Shown: positions 1,809-2,506 of the stretch, piece by piece
How the letters are laid out: each line of letters starts with the position of its first letter
How positions within the stretch are numbered: the first letter of the stretch is position 1
Sequence record: NC_007817.1
From: Escherichia phage ID2 Moscow/ID/2001
Length of the DNA stretch: 5,486 nucleotides
Reading direction: 5' to 3' (one strand)
Made by a program: the position numbers and the translations under genes
Notes under the pieces: generated by a model
Databases searched by the model: none
The model's input: only the letters and a program-made list of their open reading frames with translations
What the model was told of the DNA's origin: nothing

Positions 1809-1974
1809 CGCTCTCGACGAGGAAAAATACCTAAATATGCTAGGTGCTCTCCTCAAGGACTGGTTCCGTTACGAAGAACATTTCGTACATGGTAAACAAT
1901 CAATGCTTGACTTATTAAATGAACGTGGACTATTATCCACATCAACAACCAACCCAAAAGGAAATACAAAATGA
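1720..1974 (+). CDS. C: Protein C (switch from dsDNA replication to ssDNA synthesis and packaging)
   Basis: ATG 1720 overlaps the A stop as ATGA. 84 aa beginning [21 protein letters not shown], close to phiX174 C ([21 protein letters not shown]) from memory. The track ORF 1702..1974 starts at an upstream GTG; the ATG at 1720 is the homologous start. Confidence 0.85.
1907..1936 (+). promoter_or_regulatory. Candidate sigma70 promoter P_D, inside gene C upstream of D
   Basis: -35 TTGACT at 1907-1912, 18-nt spacer, -10 TATTAT at 1931-1936. Predicted TSS near 1943, about 28 nt before the D ATG, similar to the leader length I recall for phiX174 P_D. Confidence 0.4.
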
Positions 1975-2426
1975 ACTCTAACGAATCTGCTGTTGCCTTC
2001 GCTACTGCTCTCGCATCTATCAAGCTCATTCAGGCTTCATCTGTGCTGGACCTGACCGAAGACGACTTCGATTTCTTAACCCGTGACCGTGTATGGATTG
2101 CCACTGACCGCTCCCGTGCTCGCCGCGCTATTGAGGCCTGCGTATATGGTACATTGGACTTTGTCGGATACCCTCGCTTTCCTGCTCCTGTTGAGTTTAT
2201 TGCTGCCGTCATTGCTTATTATGTTCATCCCGTTAACATCCAGACAGCATGTCTTATTATGGAAGGCGCCGAGTTCACCGAAAATATTATCAATGGTATT
2301 GACCAGCCAGTTAAGGCCGCTGAACTATTCGCTTTTACCCTGCGTGTACGCGCCGGAAACACTGACCATGTTACACATGCAGAAACTAACGTACGTGAAC
2401 AATTACGTGCTCAAGGAGTAATGTAA
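1971..2426 (+). CDS. D: External scaffolding protein D
   Basis: 151-aa ORF (phiX174 D is about 152 aa). ATG overlaps the C stop as ATGA at 1971-1974. AAGGA SD at 1958-1962 with 8-nt spacing. Position and size fit the canonical gene order. Confidence 0.92.
   Translation: MNSNESAVAFATALASIKLIQASSVLDLTEDDFDFLTRDRVWIATDRSRARRAIEACVYGTLDFVGYPRFPAPVEFIAAVIAYYVHPVNIQTACLIMEGAEFTENIINGIDQPVKAAELFAFTLRVRAGNTDHVTHAETNVREQLRAQGVM
2146..2421 (+). CDS. E: Lysis protein E (MraY inhibitor), overprinted in the +1 frame of D
   Basis: Internal ATG 2146 of track ORF 2083..2421 gives 91 aa: MVHWTLSDTLAFLLLLSLLLPSLLIMFIP... The N-terminal transmembrane segment is nearly identical to phiX174 E (MVRWTLWDTLAFLLLLSLLLPSLLIMFIP) from memory, including Pro21. 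GAGG SD at 2133-2136 with 9-nt spacing. Confidence 0.85.
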   Translation: MVHWTLSDTLAFLLLLSLLLPSLLIMFIPLTSRQHVLLWKAPSSPKILSMVLTSQLRPLNYSLLPCVYAPETLTMLHMQKLTYVNNYVLKE

Positions 2427-2506
2427 TGGCTAAAGGCTCTCGTCGGCGTTCGCCGTCCCGCTCTAAAGGTGCTCGCCTCTGGTATGTTGGCGGCACACAA
2501 TTCTAA
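2426..2506 (+). CDS. J: Small basic DNA-binding/packaging protein J
   Basis: Not in the ORF track (26 aa). ATG 2426 overlaps the D stop as TAATG. Hand translation: MAKGSRRRSPSRSKGARLWYVGGTQF, stop TAA 2504-2506. Strong AAGGAG SD at 2413-2418 with 7-nt spacing. Highly basic, with the ARLWYVGGTQF C-terminus I recall from G4-type J. Confidence 0.85.
   Translation: MAKGSRRRSPSRSKGARLWYVGGTQF

Follow-up and report, generated by a model that had tools for sequence, protein, structure and literature searches.

The open reading frame at positions 2146 to 2421 of the genome of Escherichia phage ID2 Moscow/ID/2001 is almost certainly the lysis gene E of Gequatrovirus talmos, which would be translated from the mRNA of gene D and whose product would join an MraY-inhibiting helix core to a tail that drifts with D. 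Our comparison supports the view that selection on E visibly constrains the DNA only in the stretch encoding this core, residues 8 to 29 of the protein, and that the needs of D decide elsewhere. The gene itself is already known, being deposited and annotated as E, the lysis gene of a coliphage of the phiX174/G4 type. Textbooks have covered gene E, its overlap with D and its essential transmembrane domain ever since phiX174 was sequenced. The identity of the ID2 gene, its frame, its pattern of conservation and the rates of the different site classes are established here.

Gene E and its surroundings in the ID2 genome

The window analysed (5486 nt, the whole of record NC_007817.1) is a complete genome of the Bullavirinae (phiX174/G4-type). 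Its end-to-end identity is 97.7% to FL76 and FL68 and 96.2% to ID204, and these three phages and ID2 are the four members of the species Gequatrovirus talmos. Gene E (2146..2421, plus strand) was translated from the sequence as 91 codons followed by TAA; it starts 175 nt past the start of D, that is, in the +1 frame of that gene. The initial annotation had placed a lysis gene E embedded in D at these positions, which is confirmed here. Our translation is identical to the 91 amino acids noted there and matches exactly gpE of Escherichia phage ID2 Moscow/ID/2001 (YP_512374.1 / AAZ48953.1). The records of the sister genomes FL76, ID204 and FL68 also annotate ‘E, cell lysis protein’ at 2146..2421. 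The same 91-aa protein is found in FL68 and FL76 (AGS81869.1, AGS81880.1), and that of ID204 differs from it by two residues. Residues 35–74 match the Pfam family PF04517 (Microvir_lysis) with 50.4 bits, for a cut-off of 25. A phmmer search of the PDB retrieved the E protein of phiX174 in the MraY–E–SlyD complex (8g02_B, E = 6e-28, residues 2–91) and that of ID21 (8g01_B, E = 3e-21, residues 1–77).

[quoted passage not shown] The protein encoded by D is identical to ID2 gpD (YP_512373.1), and among the cluster members listed no other phage carries that sequence. The gpD cluster at 90% identity also holds ‘proteins’ of 281–946 aa from assemblies of Glomeromycota fungi, Penicillium and a tapeworm, mostly on contigs of about 5.4 kb. 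The most likely source of these fungal and tapeworm members is contamination by the phiX174 sequencing control, with gene models that were fused.

The 3′ end of the overlap is densely packed. The E stop codon TAA (2419..2421, plus strand) lies inside the Val–Met codons of D, and E ends 5 nt ahead of the D stop. The last two codons of E, Lys90–Glu91, are formed by AAGGAG (2413..2418, plus strand), which from its sequence is the putative ribosome site of gene J. The stop of D and the start of J share the pentanucleotide TAATG (2424..2428, plus strand), as read from the sequence, and J is annotated at 2426–2506 in FL76 and FL68. Just 3′ of the J stop at 2506, the spacer between J and F contains a hairpin (2513–2528, AGGGGC-TTCG-GCCCCT) with a perfect GC-rich stem of 6 bp and a TTCG loop, followed by CTATTT; a simple terminator scan did not call it, the T run being short. 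Elsewhere in the genome, the frame of gene A is open from an ATG at 32 (32–1723, 563 aa), and FL76 and ID204 annotate A from 62. On the minus strand, open reading frames cross the D/E region at 2030–2212, 2076–2228 and 2225–2362, none of which is annotated in any relative. The minus strand is taken as untranscribed in such phages.

Upstream of the E start codon, a putative ribosome-binding site, GAGG (2133..2136, plus strand), whose role we infer from the sequence, is located 9 nt 5′ of the ATG at 2146. Both GAGG and ATG are unchanged in all 24 aligned genomes (see below), even at the third base of D codon Glu55, which is a silent site. The E frame could also be read from a GTG at 2083 as an ORF of 112 aa. 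This longer version was excluded, and the start placed at 2146, since in-frame stops separate the GTG from the ATG in NC1 and WA11; moreover, every annotated relative begins E at the ATG. Predicted mRNA folding at the E start gave −14 to −20 kcal/mol for ID2, five relatives and phiX174 (wild type vs. R3H), with no consistent pattern. Upstream of D, a consensus scan found a promoter-like pattern, TTGACT-18-TATTAT (1907..1936, plus strand), with 10 of 12 matches. This pattern match is a candidate D promoter, which would supply the E mRNA as well.

The E frame and its relatives

We compared the D/E region of ID2 with that of 23 other Bullavirinae, giving a set of 24 genomes from three genera. The same arrangement, with E wholly or mostly inside D in the +1 frame, is present in 23/23 of the compared genomes, and the E frame is open in all 24, with products of 75–105 aa. 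The initial annotation had proposed that premature stops in the E frame of close relatives would speak against the gene, and the 24 genomes contain none. Moreover, at least 80% of ID2 E was recovered by tblastn as a single piece in 532 of the 535 matching phage records.

The E protein of phiX174 (Sinsheimervirus; PDB 8G02 chain B) resembles that of ID2 in its length of 91 aa, its position in the +1 frame of D, its GAGG–ATG start context and its residues 8–29. It differs in having Arg3 and Trp7 where ID2 E has His3 and Ser7, in residues 30–35 (LTSRQH in ID2), in its tail, which is 57% identical, and in its larger number of Lys and Arg residues. The E proteins of the G4 group belong to the same genus and frame as ID2 E; most of them have His3 and Ser7, and their core is identical except for Phe19 in G4. 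Those of G4, ID11, ID12, ID8 and ID52 read past the end of D into J and reach 96–105 aa, unlike ID2 E, which stops inside D. In contrast, the E proteins of ID18 and WA14, which are closer to ID2, have 91 aa. Tail identity between ID2 E and the G4-group proteins is only 46–66%. In the alpha3 group (alpha3, St-1, WA13, ID32 and NC29, 75–76 aa; also ID21 E, PDB 8G01), the core and Pro21 are as in ID2, but the C-terminus is 15–16 residues shorter and tail identity falls to 34–36%. Lysis assays with plasmid-encoded E have been published for ID52, G4 and alpha3 (PMC11126076).

The transmembrane core is identical to that of phiX174 E

Residues 8–29 of E (DTLAFLLLLSLLLPSLLIMFIP; 2167..2232, plus strand) form the transmembrane core according to hydropathy. 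The Kyte–Doolittle maximum over 19 residues is 2.79, at residues 10–28, and all windows starting past residue 15 are at or below 1.6. E is thus predicted to have a single, N-terminal transmembrane helix spanning approximately residues 10–28.

Taking J02482 as the phiX174 reference, 60 of the 91 residues are identical (66%; 65.9% by tblastn), and the differences are very unevenly spread. The initial annotation had described the N-terminal transmembrane segment with Pro21 as almost unchanged and the C-terminal half as substantially different. The former statement is exact for the core, where 22/22 residues are identical, Pro21 included, but not for what flanks it: the periplasmic N-terminus (residues 1–7) retains 5/7 residues, with the changes R3H and W7S from phiX174 to ID2, and the juxtamembrane residues 30–35 retain 1/6 (LTSRQH in ID2, STFKRP in phiX174). 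The latter statement is borne out by residues 36–91, of which 32/56 (57%) are identical, yet this half of the protein is still recognisably homologous, as the PF04517 match falls within it almost entirely (35–74).

Among the parts of E, the transmembrane region has been called the essential one (PMC4825663), and mutations in this core segment of phiX174 E were reported to abolish or alter lysis (PMC11126076, PMC4825663). In particular, the substitution P21A leaves both phiX174 E and ID52 E unable to lyse cells (PMC11126076). The codon for Pro21 in ID2, read from the sequence, is CCG (2206..2208, plus strand), and the residue is kept in 23 of the 24 compared genomes, the exception being SECphi17.

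SECphi17 belongs to a clade of coliphages, together with Lilleput, Lilleto, Lilleen, lillemer, Lilledu and MG1, in which the E-frame ORF is present with no E annotation over it; most members of this SECphi17/Lilleput-type clade are recorded as isolated on E. coli K-12 MG1655. In the five genomes that we read, namely SECphi17 (LT960607; ORF at L010:576–863) and Lilleput, lillemer, Lilledu and Lilleen (ORFs at L024–L027:251–535), the ORF has 95–97 aa and the usual GAGG–ATG start. Its helix reads LAFLLLL(S/N)LFLLLSLTTFIRS in all five, with Leu21 for Pro21, Arg29 for Pro29, and Phe19. Seven records match this ORF at 94–100% identity. From these sequences, it would appear either that Pro21 is not universally required or that the E proteins of this Leu21 clade work differently.

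Selection on E is visible only in the core

The third positions of D codons are the second positions of E codons, so that a change that is silent in D nearly always alters E. For the D third positions, we therefore determined the number of changes per site by parsimony, using a neighbour-joining tree of the 24 D genes; the tree was built from the same D alignment, and the figures are parsimony counts rather than the output of a formal overlapping-gene codon model. In the part of D that precedes E (1974–2144), there were 3.30 changes per D third position. The value was 2.29 over E residues 1–7, dropped to 0.64 over residues 8–29, about 5-fold below the D-only part, rose to 3.50 over residues 30–35 and was 2.86 over residues 36–91 (2.45, 2.39 and 3.74 for residues 36–55, 56–73 and 74–91). 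The core differs strongly from both the D-only part (Mann–Whitney p = 7e-9) and the tail (p = 1.5e-7), whereas the third-position rates of the tail and of the D-only part are not significantly different (p = 0.06). The pattern persists when SECphi17 is left out (3.00 D-only, 0.36 core, 2.47 tail). It supports the suggestion of the initial annotation that the D frame dominates outside the transmembrane part (0.64 in the core vs. 2.86 in the tail and 3.30 in D alone). It also narrows the protected segment to residues 8–29 rather than the whole N-terminal third of the protein, the flanking residues 1–7 (2.3) and 30–35 (3.5) changing at an approximately neutral rate.

The D protein is itself conserved over the core stretch, with 35/35 residues identical to phiX174 D, and since D is nearly invariant there, both frames are constrained in this part of the overlap. 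The situation is different in the tail (2251..2418), where D is 83% identical to phiX174 D and E only 57% identical to phiX174 E. This segment has 35 base differences from phiX174, of which 20 leave the D protein unaltered but recode E, 8 affect both proteins, 5 affect D only and 2 neither.

Two explanations that would deprive the E frame of its role in this pattern can be weighed against these data. According to the first, the E frame would be open by chance, or E would be a degenerate gene without expression in ID2. An open +1 frame in one genome is indeed weak evidence alone: in recodings of D with synonymous codons, sampled according to the codon usage of F, G and H, all 91 E codons stayed open in 11.6% of cases. 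This explanation is however hardly compatible with a frame that is open in 24/24 genomes of three genera and in 532 further records, with the invariance of its GAGG and start codon, with selection on its helix core, and with a genome of 11 genes that has no other annotated lysis gene. We give it practically no credit, and the comparative data rule out a chance or dead ORF. According to the other explanation, the stretch 2167–2232 would be frozen by selection on codon choice in D, or by an RNA or DNA element, and the E helix would be conserved as a side effect. The invariance of D over this stretch (35/35 with phiX174) does account for part of the nucleotide conservation. Nevertheless, invariant D codons situated outside the stretch vary freely at their third base. 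At degenerate codons whose D amino acid never varies, we counted 3.0 changes in the D-only part and 2.5 in the tail, vs. 0.7 in the core; in this subset, the core differs from each flank (p = 4e-6 and 3.5e-5), with no significant difference between the tail and the D-only part (p = 0.13). In addition, the frozen third bases have a marked composition, as 68% of D third bases are T across E residues 8–29; the rest of D has 35% and genes F, G and H have 39%. Such an excess is what a helix of Leu, Ile and Phe residues read in the E frame calls for. Moreover, the frozen block begins at E residue 8 and ends at E residue 29, limits that match no feature of D, and, as mentioned above, mutations of this segment in phiX174 E were reported to abolish or alter lysis. 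We thus regard a cause of the freeze other than E as very improbable.

The cytoplasmic tail probably drifts with D

The remainder of the protein, predicted to be cytoplasmic, is divergent in residues 36–91 (2251..2418, plus strand). Our observations support the idea that this tail is carried along by silent substitutions of D and drifts even in length. Its charge also varies. After the helix, the E proteins of the talmos clade (ID2, FL68, FL76 and ID204) have 6 Lys/Arg, the fewest basic residues of all 24, and their net charge there is +4. The other 20 proteins have 8–13 Lys/Arg and net charges of +6 to +11, and the phiX174 tail has 13 Lys/Arg.

Instead of being a passive by-product of D, residues 36–91 could be under a loose selection at the level of composition, in which case the talmos tail would be a functionally tuned variant. 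Such selection would act on the net positive charge (inside-positive topology), on a Pro/Ser-rich docking region for SlyD and on keeping the frame open to about residue 75. Several observations fit this possibility: the tail scores 50 bits against the Pfam model of the E C-terminus, it is net positive (+4 to +11) in 24/24 proteins, the shortest E has 75 aa, and C61S and F66C in the tail of ID52 E were reported to abolish lysis (PMC11126076). The rate at D third positions is also slightly lower than in the D-only part (2.86 vs. 3.30, or 2.5 vs. 3.0 at D-invariant codons), but this deficit is not significant in either comparison (p = 0.06 and 0.13). Furthermore, length ranges from 75 to 105 aa, tail identity drops to 34–57% between genera, and several of the conserved tail residues are forced by D, such as Trp39, which lies inside Met97–Glu98 of D. 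Loose selection on the tail is thus possible but, in our opinion, rather unlikely, and we favour drift imposed by D.

Near the N-terminus of ID2 E, codon 3 is CAT (2152–2154), and His3 is the residue created by the Epos mutation R3H of phiX174; it is common in the G4 group. In phiX174, this mutation (G575A, silent in D) accelerates the synthesis of E and lets the phage plate on slyD hosts (PMC4825663). G4 and SECphi17 also have Phe19, the residue to which the second Epos mutation, L19F, leads. ID2 E has Ser7 where phiX174 E has Trp7, and S7W in ID52 E was reported to abolish lysis (PMC11126076). ID52 E was also reported to lyse without SlyD (PMC11126076). A need for SlyD, which is characteristic of phiX174 E, may therefore not be shared by all E proteins. 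With 6 Lys/Arg in the ID2 tail vs. 13 in that of phiX174, chaperone dependence or lysis timing could differ between the two. Because of His3, the Epos state, and of the least basic tail among the 24 proteins, one may wonder whether nature has tuned E in the talmos clade, changing its need for the chaperone or the timing of lysis; we consider this doubtful.

A probable mode of action and its implications

The pattern described above fits a simple scheme for the synthesis and action of ID2 E, in which we infer expression, MraY inhibition and interaction with SlyD. E would have no promoter of its own and would be translated, at the conserved GAGG-N9-ATG, from an mRNA that also encodes D. Residues 8 to about 29 would form one Leu-rich transmembrane helix, with Pro21 inside, inserted in the inner membrane. 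By homology with the E proteins of phiX174 and ID21, this helix would bind MraY and halt the synthesis of lipid I, so that growing cells lyse. [quoted passage not shown] Because the core of ID2 E is identical to that of phiX174 E at 22 of 22 positions, MraY is very likely its target too, and it is likely that ID2 E causes lysis via MraY inhibition. The basic, Pro/Ser-rich cytoplasmic tail would correspond to the region through which phiX174 E interacts with the chaperone SlyD. Silent changes in D would be blocked by selection on E only in the helix core, leaving the tail free to drift.

The value of ID2 E as a discovery is small, since RefSeq already contains this very protein, sister genomes have the gene annotated at the same coordinates, and textbooks describe both how E acts and how it overlaps D. 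If the talmos-clade protein were indeed a tuned variant, it would be a natural MraY inhibitor that is SlyD-independent or faster acting. In any case, natural E proteins tolerate large changes of their tail in sequence, charge and length, which bears on the engineering of E for producing bacterial ghosts and on the design of MraY inhibitors. The D/E region of ID2 also illustrates how two overlapping frames share the same DNA: E freezes the silent sites of D over 22 codons, and the silent drift of D rewrites the other 69 codons of E.
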